DNA of 17,048 nucleotides from Sulfurimonadaceae bacterium (GCA_041562555.1 JBFEXS010000038.1:1-17048), one strand, 5' to 3'. Numbered from the stretch's first letter, positions 1 through 17,048 are shown. Translations and numbers: made by a program. Notes: generated by a model not told the origin, from the sequence alone.

Positions 1-204
1 ATCATCTAGCAGTTTTGCGTCACTAACACCGCTGCATTCGATACTCAGGTTCACCCAATCAAAGGCGCGGTTCTTGTCCTGTACCGTAAGCGTTATTTTA
101 AAGGCGGTAGGAGAGAGAATATCCAATGAGACAAGTTCTCCTCCTACAAGACTGTCAAAACGTTCCATAAAGGCTAGTAGGTCGTTTTTAGAGAGTGGTT
201 TCAT
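1..204 (-). CDS. Hypothetical protein, 5' part only (runs off the window edge): MKPLSKNDLLAFMERFDSLVGGELVSLDILSPTAFKITLTVQDKNRAFDWVNLSIECSGVSDAKLLDD...
   Basis: Manual translation: ATG at 204-202, open for 68 codons to position 1. AAGGA SD upstream; candidate -10 hexamers TAGAAT (259-254) and TATAAT (294-289). Absent from the ORF track, presumably because it is truncated. Confidence 0.8.
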   Translation of the reverse strand, partial: MKPLSKNDLLAFMERFDSLVGGELVSLDILSPTAFKITLTVQDKNRAFDWVNLSIECSGVSDAKLLDD

Positions 205-323
205 AAGTAGCTTGAGTTCCTTCTTTAAGTATATGTTTCGTAACGGTACAGAAATTCTATTAAAGATAGAATTTTACACGCATTTAATATTATACGTGCA
301 ATAATTTCCTTCTATTCAAATAC

Positions 324-365
324 AATTCATATTCTGGTTGTTGGCGCAATTTCAGAATATGAATT
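324..365. terminator. Strong hairpin, possible terminator or RNA-stabilising stem
   Basis: Perfect 13-bp inverted repeat AATTCATATTCTG (324-336) / CAGAATATGAATT (353-365), with further pairing possible inside the loop. No long U tract on either side. Confidence 0.5.
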
Positions 366-450
366 TACTATGACACATAACTTCTAATAGATTGATTACA
401 AAATCGACATCAATTATTAAATGTAGAGATTTGTATATTATTGTCATCAT
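352..450 (-). CDS. Candidate 32-aa small protein MMTIIYKSLHLIIDVDFVINLLEVMCHSKFIF
   Basis: Perfect SD AAGGAGG (463-457) 6 nt before ATG ATG; TGA at 354-352; candidate -10 TAAAAT at 527-522. No recognised homology. Confidence 0.45.
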   Translation of the reverse strand: MMTIIYKSLHLIIDVDFVINLLEVMCHSKFIF

Positions 451-581
451 TGGTTCCCTCCTTTGTGTGAACTATAAAGAAGGTTCCCTAGCTACTTATA
501 AAAACATCTCTTCGTCTAAGTATTTTACTCTGACAAGGCTTGTGCAATCTTAACGTTGATAAATATATTCTTATTCATTAA

Positions 582-601
582 GATTTAGCAGAAACTAAAT
601 C
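582..601 (-). terminator. Weak hairpin immediately after the nrdA stop
   Basis: GATTTAG (582-588) / CTAAATC (595-601), 7-bp stem with 6-nt loop; poor U tract. Confidence 0.35.
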
Positions 602-2968
602 CTATTGACAACCCACACATTCCATGGAGCGGTCTTCTACGTCATTGCTGGCTTCCGGAGACTGGCTTCTGAGATAGTAAGTCGACTTGAGGCCAAGTTT
701 CCATGCAAGCATATAGATCTCGTTGAGGTATTTACCTGAAGCTTTGTCCAGGGTGATGAAGATATTGAGACTCTGTCCCTGATCGATCCATTTTTGACGT
801 ACTGCAGCGGCCTTAATCAAAATCGTCTGGTTCAAATCATACGCCGGCGTATAGTAGGCCCATGTATCCGGTGAGAGTTTTGGTACGACAACAGGAATTA
901 GACCTGAAAGGTTCTCTTCAAACCATTTACGTTTATATACAGGCTCAATCGCTTGAGTTGTTCCTGTAAGGATCGAGATAGAAGAGGTCGGTGCAATTGC
1001 CATGAGGTAACCATTACGCATACCGTCTTTTTTAACCTTGGTTCGAAGTTCATCCCAGTCATAATTGGAAGCAAAAAGTCCGCCGCGATCGACAAGATTG
1101 ATGACTTCTGCATTCGCGTGATCCATCGGCATGATACCTTTACTCCATTTGGAACCTTCGAACTCCGGATAAGAACCTTTCTCAAGCGCAATTTCTGATG
1201 AGGCATAAATAGCGTTATAGGATACGGCTTCCATCACCTCATCGATTTTGTCAAAGTGTTCTTGAGATCCCCAGGAGATGCCGCTCATAGCCAACATCTC
1301 AGCCTCACCCATAACACCCAGCCCTACGGAACGGCTTTTAAGGTTGGTACGTTTTACTTTTTCTACCGGGTAGAAGTTTAGGTCGATCACATTATCAAGA
1401 GCACGCATCGCAATTGGGACAATACGTTCGATATCTTCCTTGGTATTGATACGGGAGAGGTTGACTGAGGCAAGATTACATACTGCTGTATCTCCGTTGA
1501 CTCTCTCTTTTTCAACGATGAAGATCTGTTTGCCATCGATCGCGTCAAGGGCAGTAACTTTGTTCGCCGGTTTTTCAACACCGCTGTCAACACGTACGAT
1601 CTCATCTTCGTCATAGGTGACATAGGTCTCATCTTCAAATTTGAGTTTGACCTTATATGTGTTCGGGTTAGTGTTTTGAAAGATCTCAGTACAGAGGTTA
1701 GACGATCTGATAACACCGTAGTGATCATTAGGGTTAGCACGGTTAGCATTGTCTTTGAAACATAAGAACGGAGAACCTGATTCAAAATAGGATGTCAGGA
1801 TCTTCTTCCACAGGTCTTTCGCTTTGATACGCTCTTTGATGATATCGTCATCCGCTTCTAACTCCAGATAACGTTTTTCAAACTCTTCTCCGTATAGAAC
1901 GGTGAGTTCCTTAGTCTGATACGGGTCAAAGAGTGTCCAGATGGCATCTTCTTGAACGCGCTTCATAAAGAGGTCATTGATCCATAGTGACGGGAAGAGA
2001 TCATGGGCACGTCTACGCTCTTCTCCTGAGTTCTTTTTAAGATCCAGGAAGTCATTGATATCCATATGCCACGGTTCAAGGTAAACGGCAATGGCTCCTT
2101 TACGTGTTCCCAGTTGGTCAACGGCGATTGCTACATCATTCGTGATCTTTAAAAATGGAACCGTTCCGCCGGCTGCATTTTTATGTCCGTCAATATATGA
2201 ACCGATTGAGCGTACCTGTGACCAATCCCAACCGATACCGCCACCAAATTTCGAGAGCATTGCCATCTCCTGATAAGCATCGAAAATACCTTCGATATTA
2301 TCCGGAGTCGATCCGATATAACATGATGAGAGTTGGTGACGAGGTGTACGTGCATTGGAAAGTGTCGGCGTTGCCAACATCACTTCAAAAGTAGAGATCA
2401 TGTCATAGAATTTTTTTGCCCACTCTTGTTTGTTTTCCTCACGTTGTGCCAGAAACATCGCGATACCCATGAACATATGTTGTGGGAGCTCGATAGGATT
2501 GCTTTCTCTGTCTTTGATTAGGTATCTGTCATAAAGTGTTTTAATTCCAAGGTAGTTAAATTGGAGATCGCGTTCAGGCTTGATGTATTTGTCTAGATCA
2601 TCCAAGTCGTACATGTCACGCAAGCCAAGAAGAAGACGCCCTTCCTTTTCCCCACGCTCAAAATATTTTTCCAGTTTGCAATATCCTGTAAAATGGTTTA
2701 CAGAATGATACAGGTTATATAGAAATAGACGTGAGGCGACAAAGGTCCAGTTTGGTGCATCGATGTCAATCTTATCGACAGCTGTCTTTATCAGCGCTTG
2801 TTGGATCTCTTTTGAGGTGATTCCATCACGGAACATGATCTGTGCATCGACCTCCAGTTCACTCTGACTTACACCGCTTAGACCTTGTACAGATGCTGAT
2901 GTGTACTTTTGGATTTTTGTTATGTCTAATGGTTCGCTTCGTCCATTTCTTTTAATGACAGTTATCAT
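602..2968 (-). CDS. nrdA: Class I ribonucleoside-diphosphate reductase alpha subunit (788 aa)
   Basis: N-terminal ATP cone (VIKRNG), ATPTLSN, SSCY, NLCTE catalytic loop, VCNL, APTSSIS, YYLR tyrosine dyad, C-terminal CxxC (CVGC). Confidence 0.98.
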   Translation of the reverse strand: MITVIKRNGRSEPLDITKIQKYTSASVQGLSGVSQSELEVDAQIMFRDGITSKEIQQALIKTAVDKIDIDAPNWTFVASRLFLYNLYHSVNHFTGYCKLEKYFERGEKEGRLLLGLRDMYDLDDLDKYIKPERDLQFNYLGIKTLYDRYLIKDRESNPIELPQHMFMGIAMFLAQREENKQEWAKKFYDMISTFEVMLATPTLSNARTPRHQLSSCYIGSTPDNIEGIFDAYQEMAMLSKFGGGIGWDWSQVRSIGSYIDGHKNAAGGTVPFLKITNDVAIAVDQLGTRKGAIAVYLEPWHMDINDFLDLKKNSGEERRRAHDLFPSLWINDLFMKRVQEDAIWTLFDPYQTKELTVLYGEEFEKRYLELEADDDIIKERIKAKDLWKKILTSYFESGSPFLCFKDNANRANPNDHYGVIRSSNLCTEIFQNTNPNTYKVKLKFEDETYVTYDEDEIVRVDSGVEKPANKVTALDAIDGKQIFIVEKERVNGDTAVCNLASVNLSRINTKEDIERIVPIAMRALDNVIDLNFYPVEKVKRTNLKSRSVGLGVMGEAEMLAMSGISWGSQEHFDKIDEVMEAVSYNAIYASSEIALEKGSYPEFEGSKWSKGIMPMDHANAEVINLVDRGGLFASNYDWDELRTKVKKDGMRNGYLMAIAPTSSISILTGTTQAIEPVYKRKWFEENLSGLIPVVVPKLSPDTWAYYTPAYDLNQTILIKAAAVRQKWIDQGQSLNIFITLDKASGKYLNEIYMLAWKLGLKSTYYLRSQSPEASNDVEDRSMECVGCQ

Positions 2969-7442: not shown

Positions 7443-7484
7443 CTTTTATCCTTTATATTCAAGTGATTGATTTCTAGTTATAGA

Positions 7485-7540
7485 AGTGTAAATGTGATTC
7501 ATTACCACGGGACTACAATTTCGACACGAGAGTATTACAA
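7485..7540 (-). promoter_or_regulatory. Candidate OmpR/PhoB-type activated promoter of the olsF-like gene
   Basis: On the - strand, heptamers TTGTAAT, TCGTGTC, TTGTAGT, TGGTAAT recur with exact 11-bp period (7540-7501), followed 10 nt later by a -10-like TACACT (7490-7485). Confidence 0.45.
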
Positions 7541-7662
7541 TGCTAAAAATTGTTCACATGAATAGTTTGAAATAGAGGTAAATGTGAATAAGTTTATAAG
7601 TAGGTGTTTGGGGTAAAACTTATATTCCCGATAATAAGGAGTTTAAAGATGATTATGAATTT

Positions 7663-7687
7663 AAAAACCCCCAAAATATAGGGGTTT
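7663..7687 (-). terminator. Intrinsic terminator-like hairpin with no adjacent CDS
   Basis: - strand reads AAACCCC-TATATTTT-GGGGG-TTTTT, a GC stem followed by a U tract, more than 400 nt downstream of the perR stop. Confidence 0.5.
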
Positions 7688-7806
7688 AAGCTATATTTAT
7701 GTTAAGAAAACAGAGTGTGAGAATTTCAAAATTTCAGAAAAAAATAAAGAAATATTTATAAAAAATTAAGTCGTAAAATTTAGATTTTGATCAAAAAAAT
7801 CATTAG

Positions 7807-7852
7807 GTTGTTCACACCTTTGAACAACGTGTGAATATTACACATATTCACA
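7807..7852. repeat. Two abutting inverted repeats
   Basis: GTTGTTCA (7807-7814) / TGAACAAC (7821-7828) and TGTGAATAT (7830-7838) / ATATTCACA (7844-7852). Confidence 0.7.
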
Positions 7853-8067
7853 ATATTTTAAAATTTCATAGGTCCAAAAAATATGATTAAGCTCAAAAAA
7901 AAGTTGTAATTGGATATGTAACCATATATTCAAAATGGTGTTTGATGAGAGATTATTTGATATGGGGGAATCTTACGAAAAGGATGAAAATTGATTGTAA
8001 CTGAAATATAAATGGCTAACTCAGTTTATAAAGTAAAAATGCAGGTTTTGTGGTATTATTTCAACAC

Positions 8068-8096
8068 AAACAGTCTCCCTGGTGTGTTGACTGTTT
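8068..8096 (-). terminator. Hairpin just after the perR stop, possible terminator
   Basis: AAACAGTC / GACTGTTT 8-bp stem beginning 4 nt after the stop; - strand tail TTTGTGTT. Confidence 0.45.
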
Positions 8097-8100
8097 CCTT

Positions 8101-8505
8101 CTATTTGTTTTGACAAGCCTCACAAATCCCACTGAAGATGACAGAATAGTTTTCAATTTTATAATGACTTTGATCTTTTACCTGTTCGAGTAGTTCATGC
8201 ACATTAATATGTATATCCGTTACGGATTCACATTGTGTACATACCATGTGCATATGCTCGGTTTTTGACAGTTCATATTTTGACTTATTATGAGGTATCT
8301 TCACTTCTGAAATAAGCTTATTCTCCAACATCGCATTCACATTTTTATACAGGGTCGCCAGAGAAATAGAGGTAAACTTTTTTTTAATATGACTAAAAAG
8401 CTCTTCAATACTGATATGACCTTTGTCATGCATGATCGATAATATGCTAAGACGCTGAGGCGTGACTTTCAAATGGTGCTCACGCAGTAATGTTTCATAA
8501 TTCAT
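8101..8505 (-). CDS. perR: Fur-family peroxide-sensing repressor (134 aa)
   Basis: LKVTPQR, SISLATLYKN helix, HMHMVCTQC and C-terminal CEAC zinc motifs; divergent from peroxide-defence genes. Confidence 0.85.
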   Translation of the reverse strand: MNYETLLREHHLKVTPQRLSILSIMHDKGHISIEELFSHIKKKFTSISLATLYKNVNAMLENKLISEVKIPHNKSKYELSKTEHMHMVCTQCESVTDIHINVHELLEQVKDQSHYKIENYSVIFSGICEACQNK

Positions 8506-8511
8506 AATAGG

Positions 8512-8520
8512 ATTATAGCA
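8512..8520 (-). promoter_or_regulatory. Extended -10 promoter of perR (leaderless geometry)
   Basis: TGCTATAAT on the - strand, followed by 6 nt and then the ATG; no SD. Confidence 0.7.
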
Positions 8521-8560
8521 TAGGCAGAAAAATTAGTATCTGATAAAAATAATTAGTAAA

Positions 8561-8575
8561 GGATAATTATTATCC
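8561..8575. promoter_or_regulatory. Fur/PerR-type 7-1-7 operator
   Basis: GGATAAT-T-ATTATCC perfect 7-1-7 inverted repeat between perR and the rubrerythrin gene. Confidence 0.7.
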
Positions 8576-8589
8576 ACTAAGTTTTAAAC

Positions 8590-8598
8590 TGTTATAAT
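8590..8598 (+). promoter_or_regulatory. Extended -10 promoter of the rubrerythrin-peroxidase operon
   Basis: TGTTATAAT about 40 nt upstream of the ATG; AAGGAAGG SD follows. Confidence 0.7.
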
Positions 8599-8639
8599 TT
8601 TCCAAAGGAAAAAAATTCTCCTTTAGAAAGGAAGGCATT

Positions 8640-9299
8640 ATGCGACAGTATGAAAGCTATAAATGTTCTGTTTGTGGAAATGAGGTTGAGGTCTCCCATG
8701 TAGGTGGTGGTGAGCTTAGTTGTTGTGGAAAGCCGATGGAGAATATAACGGACAACCTGACAATGGTGAATCTGTTAAAGGCATTTGCCGGTGAATCACA
8801 GGCAAGGAATCGATATGAATATTATGCAAAGGTAGCACAAAAAGAGGGCTATAGAGATATCGCCGAACATTTTCAACGGGCAGCTAATAATGAAAAGACC
8901 CATGCCAAATTAGAGTTGGCCATGTATAATAGAATGGAAAGCGGGTCGGATAATAGTTTTGGTGATACCAAAGAAAACCTGCAAGAAGCGATCAACGGTG
9001 AGTCCTATGAGAATCTGACGATGTATCCTGAGTTCTCCCGTATAGCAGAAGAAGAGGGACATGTGGAAGCTGCGAAACTTTTTGCTGCGATTGGCAAGGT
9101 TGAAGTGGAACATGAAAAAATGTATAAGCTACTTTTAGATAGACTTAACGCAGGTGCAGAATTTGAGAGTGAAGATGACGAAGAAGAGTGGATTTGCGAA
9201 GTTTGCGGACATGTACATCGTGGCAAAAAAGCATTGAAAGTCTGTCCTGTGTGCAAACACCCTCAAGAGTATCAGTCGCGTTTAAATAATAAAAAATAA
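8640..9299 (+). CDS. Desulforubrerythrin (desulforedoxin domain + diiron four-helix bundle + rubredoxin-like domain, 219 aa)
   Basis: N-terminal YKCSVCGN...[18 protein letters not shown], two ExxH motifs (EKTH, EVEH), C-terminal WICEVCG...CPVC. Confidence 0.92.
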
Positions 9300-9313
9300 A
9301 AAGGAGACAATAG

Positions 9314-10333
9314 ATGTTGAAAACAGTAGTAATCAGTAGTACTTTAGCAGTAAGCGTTATGATGGGTTCGTCCCTGATAGATCAGGCAAAAGAAGCGGGT
9401 CTGCAAGCAATCCCAAAAGATGCGGGTGCAGTGCGCAAACTTGTGGATAATCCGAAAAACCCTATCACGGACGCCAAGGTCGCCCTTGGAAAGATGCTCT
9501 ATTTTGAGCCTCGTATCTCAAAGAGCGGATTGATCTCATGTAATACCTGTCACAACCTTGCTACCGGTGGTGTGGATGGTGTTGCTGCTGCGATAGGGCA
9601 TAAATGGACGGCAAACCCACACCATTTGAACTCACCGACGGTATATAATGCGGTCTTCTTTGATGCACAGTTCTGGGATGGACGGGATCCAGATCTAGAA
9701 AAGCAGGCGCAGGGCCCTATTCTGGCAGGACCGGAGATGGCTGCGACAAAAGAACATGTTGTTGCAACGGTAAGTTCAATGCCTGGATATGTGGATGCCT
9801 TCAAAAAAGCATATGGAAAAGATGTGAAGATCACGTATGAGAATATTACAGCTTCAATCGGACTGTTTGAGCGTACTTTAGTGACACCGGCACCATACGA
9901 TGCTTTTTTACAGGGTGATACCAAGGCCATGACTGCTGAAGAGCAAGAGGGTCTAAAGACATTTATTGATAAAGGATGTGCGACATGTCACACGGGTATC
10001 GCACTTGGTGGTTCGATGCAGGCATTTGGTGTCACCGGTGAATACAAATATGCAGACGTCGGTGACTTCAAAGGTGACAAGAACGGATTGGTAAAGGTTC
10101 CGACACTTAGAAATGTTACGCAGACAGCTCCATATTTCCATAATGGTGCAGTGACAACCTTGAAAGAGGCGATCGTCGAGATGGGACGCATTCAACTCGG
10201 GATAAAGATTAGCGATAACGAAGCAAAAAAGATCGAGACTTTCTTCCATGCACTTGAAGGTAAGAAACCTGAAGTGACCTATCCTCAGCTTCCAAATGCT
10301 ACGGCAACAACTCCAAAGCCAAACGTAAATTAG
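9314..10333 (+). CDS. Periplasmic di-haem cytochrome c peroxidase (339 aa)
   Basis: Signal peptide, two CxxCH motifs (CNTCH, CATCH), QFWDGR, KVPTLRN, APYFHNG; AAGGAG SD. Confidence 0.95.
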   Translation: MLKTVVISSTLAVSVMMGSSLIDQAKEAGLQAIPKDAGAVRKLVDNPKNPITDAKVALGKMLYFEPRISKSGLISCNTCHNLATGGVDGVAAAIGHKWTANPHHLNSPTVYNAVFFDAQFWDGRDPDLEKQAQGPILAGPEMAATKEHVVATVSSMPGYVDAFKKAYGKDVKITYENITASIGLFERTLVTPAPYDAFLQGDTKAMTAEEQEGLKTFIDKGCATCHTGIALGGSMQAFGVTGEYKYADVGDFKGDKNGLVKVPTLRNVTQTAPYFHNGAVTTLKEAIVEMGRIQLGIKISDNEAKKIETFFHALEGKKPEVTYPQLPNATATTPKPNVN

Positions 10334-10446: not shown

Positions 10447-11376
10447 ATGCCAAAGACAGCACAGATCCATGTGATGAAGGTTTTAATCATTGATAGTGCT
10501 AATAGCGGGAGCAATCTATTAAAAGCTGTATTAGAACAAGAAGCTTTTGAGAATGTATTTACGGCGACCTGCCTGGATGAGGTATGGGGTATATTACAGA
10601 CTCATGATATTGACCTTATATTACTCTCTTACGTTTTACCAAAGATCAGTGGTGCAGAGGCCTGTAAAAAGATCTCATCCAATCCACGGTATGAAGATAT
10701 ACCGATCATCATGGTAACGGCAAATAATGAGATCGAGACCCTGCAGAATAGTTTTGAGAATGGTGCGATCGATTACATAGCCAAGCCATTTAACGGGCAG
10801 GAACTGATAGCACGGGTTCAAGCTCATCTGATCCGAAAGAGTATTTCGGATCAACGCAAAAAGATAGCCATTACGGATCCGCTTACCGAGGTGTATAACC
10901 GTCGGCATTTTGATATGGTCTATGATGAGCTTTACACACGCTCTATACAAGAACATAAGACGATGACCTTTATGATGATCGATATTGACAACTTCAAGAA
11001 GTATAATGATAATTATGGACATCAGAAGGGGGATTCTGCACTTAAATCAGTCGCAGGTGCTATTAAGGAGCAAATAGAGGGCATAAATGGCAGTCTTTTT
11101 AGATTGGGAGGTGAAGAGTTCGCTGTTTTACTTTTTGATGCTTCTGAGACTCTTTTAAAAAGCCTTAGTGGGGATATTCACAAGGCTTTGGGCTTTTTAA
11201 AAATCGAACATGCATATAATGAAGCATTTGGGTATCTGACAATATCTATGGGCGTGACCCGTGTGCAATGCAGTCCGGAGATCTCCAAGTTTGCTATTTA
11301 TAACAGTGCGGATCAGGCATTATATGGGTCCAAGAAAAATGGCAGAAACCAAACGACCTTCTCTGTAGTCAATTAG
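10447..11376 (+). CDS. REC-like domain + GGDEF diguanylate cyclase (309 aa)
   Basis: Receiver fold motifs (VLIID, IPIIMVTA, GAIDYIAKPF); DPLT, DIDNFKKYND, GHQKGD, RLGGEEF, ADQALY...K..GRN. Confidence 0.92.
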   Translation: MPKTAQIHVMKVLIIDSANSGSNLLKAVLEQEAFENVFTATCLDEVWGILQTHDIDLILLSYVLPKISGAEACKKISSNPRYEDIPIIMVTANNEIETLQNSFENGAIDYIAKPFNGQELIARVQAHLIRKSISDQRKKIAITDPLTEVYNRRHFDMVYDELYTRSIQEHKTMTFMMIDIDNFKKYNDNYGHQKGDSALKSVAGAIKEQIEGINGSLFRLGGEEFAVLLFDASETLLKSLSGDIHKALGFLKIEHAYNEAFGYLTISMGVTRVQCSPEISKFAIYNSADQALYGSKKNGRNQTTFSVVN

Positions 11377-16809: not shown

Positions 16810-17048
16810 ATGAAACAAGATGTAGTTGCTAAAAAGAAGTTTGGACAGAACTTTCTTATTGATGAAAGTGTTGTCAGAAAAATTGTCGAAGCGATGCCCA
16901 ATAATAATAATCTTATTGCAGAGATTGGGCCTGGCTTAGGTGATTTGACTAAACATTTAGTAAACGTCAAAAGCGTGATTGCTTTTGAAGTGGACACCGA
17001 TTTGTGTAAGCTCCTTAACGAAGAGTTTAAAGAAGAGATGAATACCGG
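16810..17048 (+). CDS. rsmA: 16S rRNA adenine dimethyltransferase, 5' part (runs off the window)
   Basis: Manual translation MKQDVVAKKKFGQNFLID...AEIGPGLGDLT...AFEVD: KKFGQNFL and EIGPG.G SAM-binding motifs. Not in the ORF track. Confidence 0.96.
   Translation, partial: MKQDVVAKKKFGQNFLIDESVVRKIVEAMPNNNNLIAEIGPGLGDLTKHLVNVKSVIAFEVDTDLCKLLNEEFKEEMNT

Follow-up and report, generated by a model that had tools for sequence, protein, structure and literature searches.

The Locus Downstream of nrdA

The window analyzed here, that is, the whole 17,048-nt stretch from a Sulfurimonadaceae bacterium (Campylobacterota; GCA_041562555.1 JBFEXS010000038.1:1-17048) to which unlabeled coordinates refer, carries on its minus strand nrdA, the gene for the large subunit of a class I ribonucleotide reductase, followed by a smaller gene that runs off the window. 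An original prediction for this DNA had placed a candidate RNA regulator in the interval between them. We find instead a lineage-specific insertion: positions 190-601 are best read as about 400 nt of inserted sequence that separates nrdA from its usual partner gene and comprises a compact and heavily folded small gene on the minus strand. Both the insertion nature of the whole gap and the 32-codon open reading frame (ORF) between the two arms of the inverted repeat had been missed in the original prediction. The features of the locus, in the order in which the minus strand is read and with the means by which each was recognized, are as follows.

602..2968, minus strand: nrdA, encoding the large subunit of class I ribonucleotide reductase, 788 aa (Pfam domains ATP-cone, Ribonuc_red_lgN and, with E 4e-179, Ribonuc_red_lgC)
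575..608, minus strand: hairpin across the nrdA stop codon, weak terminator candidate (inverted repeat with 14-nt arms, 86% complementary)
522..527, minus strand: TAAAAT, candidate -10 box of a putative small-ORF transcript (read from the sequence)
471..511, minus strand (read 511 to 471): 5' arm, the right arm of the original prediction, forming the 5' untranslated region (UTR) of the small ORF (repeat search, fold, duplex)
476..483, minus strand: anti-Shine-Dalgarno (anti-SD) segment CCUUCUUU within the 5' arm (short-RNA fold, accessibilities)
456..464, minus strand: Shine-Dalgarno (SD) sequence AAAGGAGGG, 5 nt ahead of the small ORF's ATG (start-region listing)
352..450, minus strand: small ORF, 32 codons plus TGA (ATG at 450, TGA at 354-352), peptide MMTIIYKSLHLIIDVDFVINLLEVMCHSKFIF (ORF listing)
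324..365, minus strand: perfect 13-bp hairpin with a 16-nt loop, arms 324-336 and 353-365 (repeat search, fold)
274..301, minus strand: second hairpin, terminator-like (fold and terminator scan)
252..274, minus strand: third hairpin, 9 bp (minimum free energy (MFE) fold)
190..230, minus strand: 3' arm, the left arm of the original prediction, with AAGGA (222-218) and the downstream gene's ATG (204-202) and first 5 codons
1..204, minus strand: 5' part (68 codons) of the downstream gene, running off the window (conserved protein family of 111-128 aa)

The stop codon of the small ORF lies at the end of the 5' stem of the 13-bp hairpin, which is followed by UUGUAUUUG and makes a weak terminator candidate, while a TATAAT inside the second hairpin (294-289) may be the downstream gene's own promoter. 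Of the start regions listed for the window, 15 in all, none has a stronger SD than the small ORF, and the peptide is hydrophobic, with a grand average of hydropathy (GRAVY) of 1.24 and a net charge of -1.

For comparison we fetched 80 related Sulfurimonadaceae loci (1.12 Mb; designated by L numbers), 71 of which hold both genes, and estimated the gap between nrdA and the downstream gene from tblastn ends.

Gap of at most 13 nt: 54 of 71 loci, the downstream gene overlapping or abutting nrdA
Gap of 39-97 nt: 11 of 71 loci
Gap of 127-197 nt: 4 of 71 loci
Gap of 315 nt (L052) and 330 nt (L039): 2 of 71 loci

As the gap measures 397 nt in the window against 13 nt or less in most relatives, the repeat sits in an insertion.

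The Inverted Repeat and Its RNA Helix

A repeat search returns two arms of 32 nt (196-227 and 475-506), 81% complementary and 247 nt apart. Taken as minus-strand RNA and with bulges allowed, the segments 511 to 471 and 230 to 190 form 36 pairs, two of them G-U, at -40.4 kcal/mol, a value that 0 of 500 shuffles of the 3' arm reach (mean -12.2, standard deviation 3.1, best -25.5). The inverted match between 190-230 and 471-511 in the original prediction is therefore real, its two G-U pairs on the minus strand recur in the sense duplex, which is better than the antisense one, and the perfect 13-bp hairpin placed between the arms was recovered by the repeat search. Two further elements of that prediction stand in part: the neighbor's ATG and first codons do fall within the left arm, whereas its AAGGA, though present, lies 13 nt from the ATG as compared to 5-7 nt upstream in relatives, and the TAAAAT proposed as a -10 box is present in the sequence but is not flagged by a two-hexamer promoter scan.

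A stricter, ungapped test that allows Watson-Crick pairs only, applied to window 150-649, gives a score of 14 versus 9.0 +/- 1.1, matched by 1 of 300 dinucleotide shuffles. The arm repeat is real and beyond chance, yet not astronomically unlikely from the window alone. In the fold of a 347-nt RNA (516 to 170) the arms are paired at -87.1 kcal/mol (z = -6.3), which none of 100 shuffles equals. When the RNA instead stops before the left arm, the anti-SD CCUUCUUU (483-476) is predicted to pair with the small ORF's own SD over an 11-nt loop, this segment having as alternative partners the small ORF's SD or AAAGAAGG in the leader of the neighbor. Against the Rfam covariance models both strands of the whole window gave 0 matches (E <= 1), and a tRNA/tmRNA scan returned nothing. 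The case from the window alone is good, not overwhelming, and the comparative data bear most of the weight.

Equivalent Inserts at the Same Junction

Equivalent inserts were found in three other genomes, two of these inserts being complete.

L039 (Sulfuricurvum): gap 330 nt; SD GGAGGTGG; peptide of 28 aa, MELLKLKIIIKMMFVAVEFLELLDKVLR
L052 (Sulfuricurvum): gap 315 nt; SD AAGGAGGC; peptide of 28 aa, MKIWIIYISIDIHEVVQQVVGYLQNNSF
L002: contig stops 56 nt past the ORF-end hairpin; SD AGGAGG; peptide of 24 aa, MINLDIYILIINVMKLIVECNCLN

All four inserts join an AGGAGG-type SD to an open frame (32, 28, 28 and 24 codons), all four have a stable hairpin in or at the end of the ORF, and their peptides range in GRAVY from 0.54 to 1.38. 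The ORF-end hairpin of L039, together with the TAAATTTTT that accompanies it, is terminator-like (0.0 expected in shuffles); terminator scans find no qualifying U-tract at the 13-bp hairpin of the window or at the ORF-end hairpin of L052. The four peptides are absent from the protein collection by exact look-up, and the best ESM Atlas score, 0.81, is at a level that shuffled proteins attain one third of the time. A match of the L052 peptide to CHASE6_C (E 0.07) was taken as chance.

L039 (z -5.9) and L052 (z -3.9) likewise have a long 5'-3' helix in their MFE folds, in which the 5' segment lies just past a common TTTTTGATA(C/G)AAT motif and the 3' segment precedes a U-run situated 14 to 24 nt ahead of the ATG of the downstream gene. 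Between its start and this U-run, both of them predicted ends, the RNA would span about 250 nt. Each arm fits the partner from its own genome: the own-arm duplexes of the window, L039 and L052 reach -40.4, -39.3 and -32.6 kcal/mol (with 2, 3 and 4 G-U pairs), as opposed to only -6.1 to -23.3 kcal/mol for the six cross-genome combinations, and in each of the three, all of 500 shuffles of the 3' arm fall short of the observed energy. The duplex is stabler in the sense than in the antisense orientation in all three, at -40.4/-35.1 (window), -39.3/-30.0 (L039) and -32.6/-14.0 kcal/mol (L052), which points to an RNA helix on the strand of the small ORF rather than to a repeat at the DNA level. In primary sequence the window insert has no significant similarity to the other three. 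Alignment of L039 with L052 is marginal (11 of 1000 shuffles as good), and similarity tests on the arms only are not significant among the inserts. MAFFT alignments of the inserts proved unreliable in the middle.

The surviving part of the L002 insert holds no long helix (-10.7 kcal/mol, no better than shuffles). The contig end at L002 10593-10626 resembles sequencing-adapter sequence, and the 3' part of this insert is presumably missing for a technical reason. On the antisense strand of L002, three promoter-like sites lie inside the ORF (10462-10517; 1.5 +/- 1.3 expected, hence not above shuffle expectation), and a terminator-like hairpin (10410-10396, minus strand) lies upstream of the small ORF's leader. 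Taken together, these sites would yield an antisense RNA of some 70-85 nt across SD and start, the best candidate for an antitoxin that we have seen.

Predicted Accessibility of the Two Start Sites

Unpaired probabilities were computed for window RNAs of different extent.

RNA ending at 316, 262 or 235: small ORF's SD 0.09-0.10; neighbor sites not applicable
RNA with the left arm: small ORF's SD 0.63; neighbor AUG 0.00; neighbor AGAAGGAAC 0.22
RNA starting at 300-245, without the 5' arm: neighbor AUG 0.61-0.78; neighbor AGAAGGAAC 0.33-0.67

As can be seen, the small ORF's SD is predicted to be open when the arms can pair. Because the single anti-SD CCUUCUUU is able to serve either SD, a swap between the two is predicted in the window. 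The original prediction held that an RNA of about 190 nt blocks translation of its neighbor, and the in silico burial of the neighbor's AUG by the helix (0.00 versus 0.61-0.78) is in keeping with this; the RNA would, however, be no plain noncoding regulator but a small mRNA with the consensus SD AAAGGAGGG and a 32-codon ORF. Also as then expected, of 15 start regions in the 17-kb window it is the neighbor's that gives the strongest duplex with the small RNA (-40.4 versus -27.5 kcal/mol for the next).

Masking of the AUG holds for the window only. The 3' arms of L039 and L052 stop short of the start codon, 14 nt before the downstream ATG in the former and about 17-24 nt before it in the latter, and are then followed by the U-run. 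Masking of the downstream start is inconsistent in these two and varies in silico with the point at which the RNA starts: an L039 RNA starting 12 nt further upstream has the downstream gene's SD buried (0.05 versus 0.91 unpaired). The MFE folds of L002 and L052 show the small ORF's SD paired with a nearby CU-rich stretch, and in L039 this SD has an unpaired probability of 0.21-0.26.

Distribution and Possible Movement of the Insert

A quick maximum-likelihood tree built from 77 nrdA genes puts the insert carriers in four separate places and requires four changes, no fewer than with shuffled labels. The insert is absent from the sisters of the window (L001, support 98, whose protein is also the best match of the window NrdA at 96% identity) and of L039 (L037, support 99). 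The downstream proteins of L039 and L052 are otherwise closest to those of their vertical relatives, that of L039 being 78% identical to L037, and they have in common a new N-terminus, MIPLT..., as compared to VPIKPLN... in relatives. Since this new N-terminus is common to these two insert-bearing loci, the unit includes the start region of the downstream gene, and it seems to move by junction replacement rather than by transposition. A separate observation concerns L039 10358-10430, where a remnant of the ancestral overlapping start (GTG..., VPIKP) adjoins nrdA and now begins a reading frame, about 22 codons long, whose end falls within the insert.

No second copy of the insert was found in the 17-kb window, in the 1.12 Mb of 80 related loci or, by blastn, in plasmid and phage collections, and no target-site duplication was seen by eye around it. 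These results tell against arms that are the termini of a miniature inverted-repeat transposable element (MITE), a case that the original prediction had named among its possible refutations. An ungapped-helix scan of 1.14 Mb gave 749 helices with a score of at least 16; among the 60 best-scoring ones listed, an SD-led small ORF was enclosed in the three inserts and in matches in L005, L064 and L057. The L005 match (16881-16991), with a weak SD and a terminator of its own, was not counted as equivalent. A duplex-energy scan of small ORFs with strong SDs (48 candidates) was uninformative, as the routine permitted very long loops.

Interpretation and Rival Explanations

We tentatively read the insert as a type-I-toxin-like small mRNA of the hok/aapA design whose leader would mask the start of the neighboring gene, in cis or in trans, a reading that we hold as possible and no more firmly than that. 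It builds on what is observed, namely the anatomy, the helices, the fit of each arm within its own genome, the status of the locus as an insertion and its patchy distribution, and it would entail that the small ORF is transcribed and translated, that its peptide is toxic and that an antitoxin RNA exists. By analogy, a strongly initiating small ORF would be held silent by SD/anti-SD pairing, and the small mRNA would be closed through the long interaction between its 5' and 3' arms. In the window the 3' arm coincides with the ribosome-binding region of the neighbor, and the same helix would hide the neighbor's start. With the arms unpaired, the small ORF's SD would be masked; with the arms paired, that SD would be open and the neighbor's AUG buried. 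Occlusion of the neighbor may then occur in cis, within a single read-through RNA, or in trans, with the arms on two RNAs. The candidate features, namely a masked strong SD, 24-32 hydrophobic codons, 5'-3' closure and a patchily occupied fixed locus, correspond to the hallmarks given for type I toxin mRNAs in the Helicobacter literature, and the 5'-3' helices of L039 and L052 agree with the hok/aapA comparison already drawn in the original prediction.

A more elaborate version, in our view quite improbable, is a reciprocal SD swap. The anti-SD of the leader would toggle between two partners, the SD of the small ORF and, in the ribonucleotide reductase-linked neighbor, the ribosome-binding region; the neighbor's leader would act as an anti-anti-SD activator of the toxin-like peptide and would itself be silenced in the process. 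The insert would then be a type I-like module that has a host mRNA, not a dedicated antitoxin RNA, as its RNA partner.

Several results weigh against a toxin-like mRNA of this design. Three of the four insert peptides are net acidic (-1), unlike most type I toxins, and the four are without significant similarity to one another. The window, L039 and L052 peptides fall in no Pfam family (at E <= 1 or <= 10) and likewise in no NCBIfam family, and phmmer with the 32-aa window peptide gave 0 matches among 1.84 billion representative proteins. In consensus scans, promoter-like sites are at or below shuffle expectation in the window, L039 and L052, and no antisense promoter or terminator is prominent. 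Removal of the 3' arm leaves the SD no more accessible in L039 (0.26 to 0.21) and L052 (0.42 to 0.35), unlike in aapA, and in the window the logic is reversed, with 3' truncation closing the small ORF's SD (0.63 to 0.09). The terminator-like hairpin and U-run at the end of the L039 ORF would put the two arms on different transcripts. The complete inserts number three (window, L039 and L052), all at the nrdA junction, the one junction that the fetched loci cover; local alignment of the window insert with those of L002, L039 and L052 is equaled by 210, 586 and 155 of 1000 shuffles, and what the inserts appear to share is a common design at a common site, their homology being unproven.

The insert could instead be a dedicated riboregulator of the downstream gene, in which either a small RNA (its ORF incidental or dual-function) or a read-through leader represses translation by pairing with the leader or start. 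This would account for the position of the 3' arm in or directly beside the downstream gene's leader in all three complete inserts, for the overlap of the window arm with the downstream SD and AUG, for the neighbor ranking as top duplex partner of the 15 start regions and for the burial of the downstream SD in the L039 RNA begun 12 nt further upstream (0.05 versus 0.91). The L039 and L052 inserts also supplied the downstream gene with a new start and N-terminus, so that the start region lies within the unit, and despite DNA indels between the two their unrelated peptides are both of 28 codons. Yet 54 of the 71 relatives manage without the insert, their gene being coupled directly to nrdA; its patchy occurrence and absence from sisters better fit a dispensable or selfish element than a needed regulator; the retention of a consensus SD and an open frame in all four inserts is unexplained if the ORF is irrelevant; and masking of the start is inconsistent across L039 and L052. 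We consider such a regulator rather unlikely. We rate as very unlikely a leader-peptide attenuator, in which translation of the small ORF into its end hairpin decides on transcriptional read-through to the downstream gene. The stable hairpin that each of the four inserts has in or at the end of its ORF, the terminator-like L039 hairpin with TAAATTTTT (0.0 expected in shuffles) and the conservation of ORF presence and length with no conservation of peptide sequence would suit an attenuator, but the 13-bp hairpin of the window has no U-tract by the criteria of the scan, that of L052 is unflagged too, a run of regulatory codons is not evident, the predicted masking of the SD would make translation rare and the long 5'-3' helix is left unexplained.

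A functionless by-product, arising by inverted duplication or quasi-palindrome extension during insertion or consisting of MITE-like termini, was also considered. The left arm holds ancestral coding sequence, as ATGAAACC... and the N-terminus MKPLSKN are common to L001, L003, L004 and L009, and the right arm was therefore either copied from the left arm or molded to it. Such a by-product would be in line with the ungapped repeat being only moderately unlikely in the window alone (1 of 300 shuffles) and with a junction that gathers unrelated inserts of 127-197 nt in L007, L008, L033 and L041. Against it stand the helices of equal design and different sequence in L039 and L052 and the stronger sense-strand duplex in all three complete inserts, and MITE-like termini sit poorly with the lack of a second copy in the window, the related loci and the plasmid and phage collections and of a target-site duplication by eye. 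A by-product strikes us as decidedly doubtful, and the toxin-like small mRNA is the reading that we rank first.

The Downstream Gene and Other Observations

The neighbor, which the original prediction had left to be identified together with the position of nrdB, belongs to an unnamed protein family of 111-128 aa across 43 complete homologues, mostly of 119-123 aa (for example L001 10431-10790), and nrdB is not next to it: in L001 it is followed by a convergent thioredoxin-like gene, while in the Sulfurovum locus L023 nrdB comes directly after nrdA. No Pfam or NCBIfam family was found for the protein. An AlphaFold2 model from the 43-sequence alignment is of the alpha+beta type with a predicted local distance difference test score of 95.4, and no solved look-alike was found (best Foldseek/PDB E 0.18, best profile-search E 0.26). 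It may be an unrecognized ribonucleotide reductase partner in a clade without adjacent nrdB.

The unrelated inserts of 127-197 nt at the same junction lie at L007 10370-10533, L008 4243-4418, L033 7260-7388 and L041 9283-9481. Those of L008 and L041 form long, GC-richer hairpins and hold no ORF with a strong SD. The nrdA junction looks like a hot spot at which structured inserts gather. Within nrdA itself, the loci L017, L037, L039, L064 and L065 carry at about 8696-8904 a long-range complementary pair, 206-218 nt apart and with scores of 20-26, which in these Sulfuricurvum loci may reflect a conserved structure of the mRNA or may be coincidental to the coding sequence. The strongest inverted repeat of the 1.14-Mb set, with scores of 33 and 32 on the two strands and arms 204 nt apart, is at L029 13922-14126 and is a candidate small mobile element.

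Elsewhere in the window, about 650 nt of AT-rich, gene-free sequence (7443-8100) separate an acyltransferase gene from a Fur-family gene. This stretch has no Rfam match and includes a mini-ORF of 10 codons on the plus strand (TAAGGAG, ATG near 7650) that ends in a GC-stem hairpin (AAACCCCC...GGGGTTT), as well as a 22-nt tandem repeat at 7729-7769. The adjoining 8101-10333, in which a gene for a Fur-family regulator is divergent from genes for rubrerythrin (with a desulfoferrodoxin-N domain) and a di-heme cytochrome c peroxidase, looks like a peroxide-stress unit.

Comparison with Known Systems

Literature searches turned up no description of this locus, and T1TAdb holds 0 mentions of Sulfurimonas. 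Of the marks of a MITE, further copies with the same terminal inverted repeats were not found in the window, the 80 related loci, the plasmids and the phages, and a target-site duplication was not seen by eye. Dual-function RNAs, such as SgrS/SgrT and RNAIII/hld, and anti-antisense activation, as by DsrA on rpoS, involve unlinked targets and short seed pairing. The insert resembles the dual-function RNAs in joining peptide coding to pairing with a target's start region, and resembles DsrA/rpoS in the putative release of an SD by titration of its anti-SD; it differs in its 36-pair helix with an adjacent gene that is part of the inserted unit. The extended, specific complementarity to a target's start region by which a trans-acting or dual-function RNA is known is present here, among the 15 start regions of the 17 kb. 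Likeness to tisB/istR-1 and zorO/orzO would lie in nonoverlapping complementarity between the 5' UTR of a toxin and a neighboring transcript, provided that the arms are on separate RNAs, with the difference that the partner here is the leader of a protein gene on the same strand and not a divergent small RNA. The L039 peptide itself was considered as a TisB and rejected: it aligns loosely with E. coli TisB in MAFFT but gives no BLASTP alignment with K-12 TisB at E <= 100 and no Pfam TisB match.

In the type I literature, a hallmark of these loci is a primary transcript that cannot be translated, its SD being masked by an anti-SD no more than 11 nt away or by a long-distance 5'-3' interaction (PMC6733600, PMC5416894); such hallmarks are likewise given in PMC8594479. 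The full-length toxin mRNA of hok is described as closed and inert by 5'-3' pairing, with metastable local hairpins near the 5' end (PMC6733600). The insert is like hok/sok in both the 5'-3' closure and the local hairpins near the 5' end, and unlike it in that no Sok-like RNA was identified and that the window, L039 and L052 peptides give no Pfam Hok_Gef match.

The closest comparison is with aapA/IsoA of Helicobacter and Campylobacter. The aapA1 mRNA of Helicobacter measures 253 nt, encodes 30 aa and has its 5' UTR paired with its 3' end, according to Arnion 2017 (PMC5416894) and Masachis 2019 (PMC6733600). Membership in this family is not claimed, since the release of the SD by 3' truncation is not seen in silico and the peptides fall in no family. 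In L039 and L052 truncation at the 3' end does not unmask the SD and the helix leaves the small ORF's SD out, and in the window the helix captures the anti-SD, with reversed logic, through a 3' arm that is the neighbor's ribosome-binding region. The peptides of the inserts are, moreover, acidic or neutral and not Lys/Arg-tailed, a distinction drawn from these properties of the peptides. What the insert has in common with aapA/IsoA are the phylum, the small ORF (24-32 aa against 30), a predicted mRNA of about 250 nt (L039 and L052, predicted ends only), a strong SD that would be masked by anti-SD pairing, the interaction of the 5' UTR with a 3' segment, found in silico in all three complete inserts, and patchy presence at conserved syntenic loci. 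If our reading is true, mRNAs of the hok/aapA design, curated so far only in Helicobacter and Campylobacter, would extend to free-living, sulfur-oxidizing Campylobacterota, and the window would present a natural case of a type-I-like module whose closing helix is fused to the start site of a host gene, with a toxin-like ORF tied to a gene that is normally cotranslated with ribonucleotide reductase. The same junction, unrelated sequence, a conserved helix and insert-free sisters together make a small and clean set on the arrival and retention of such modules.

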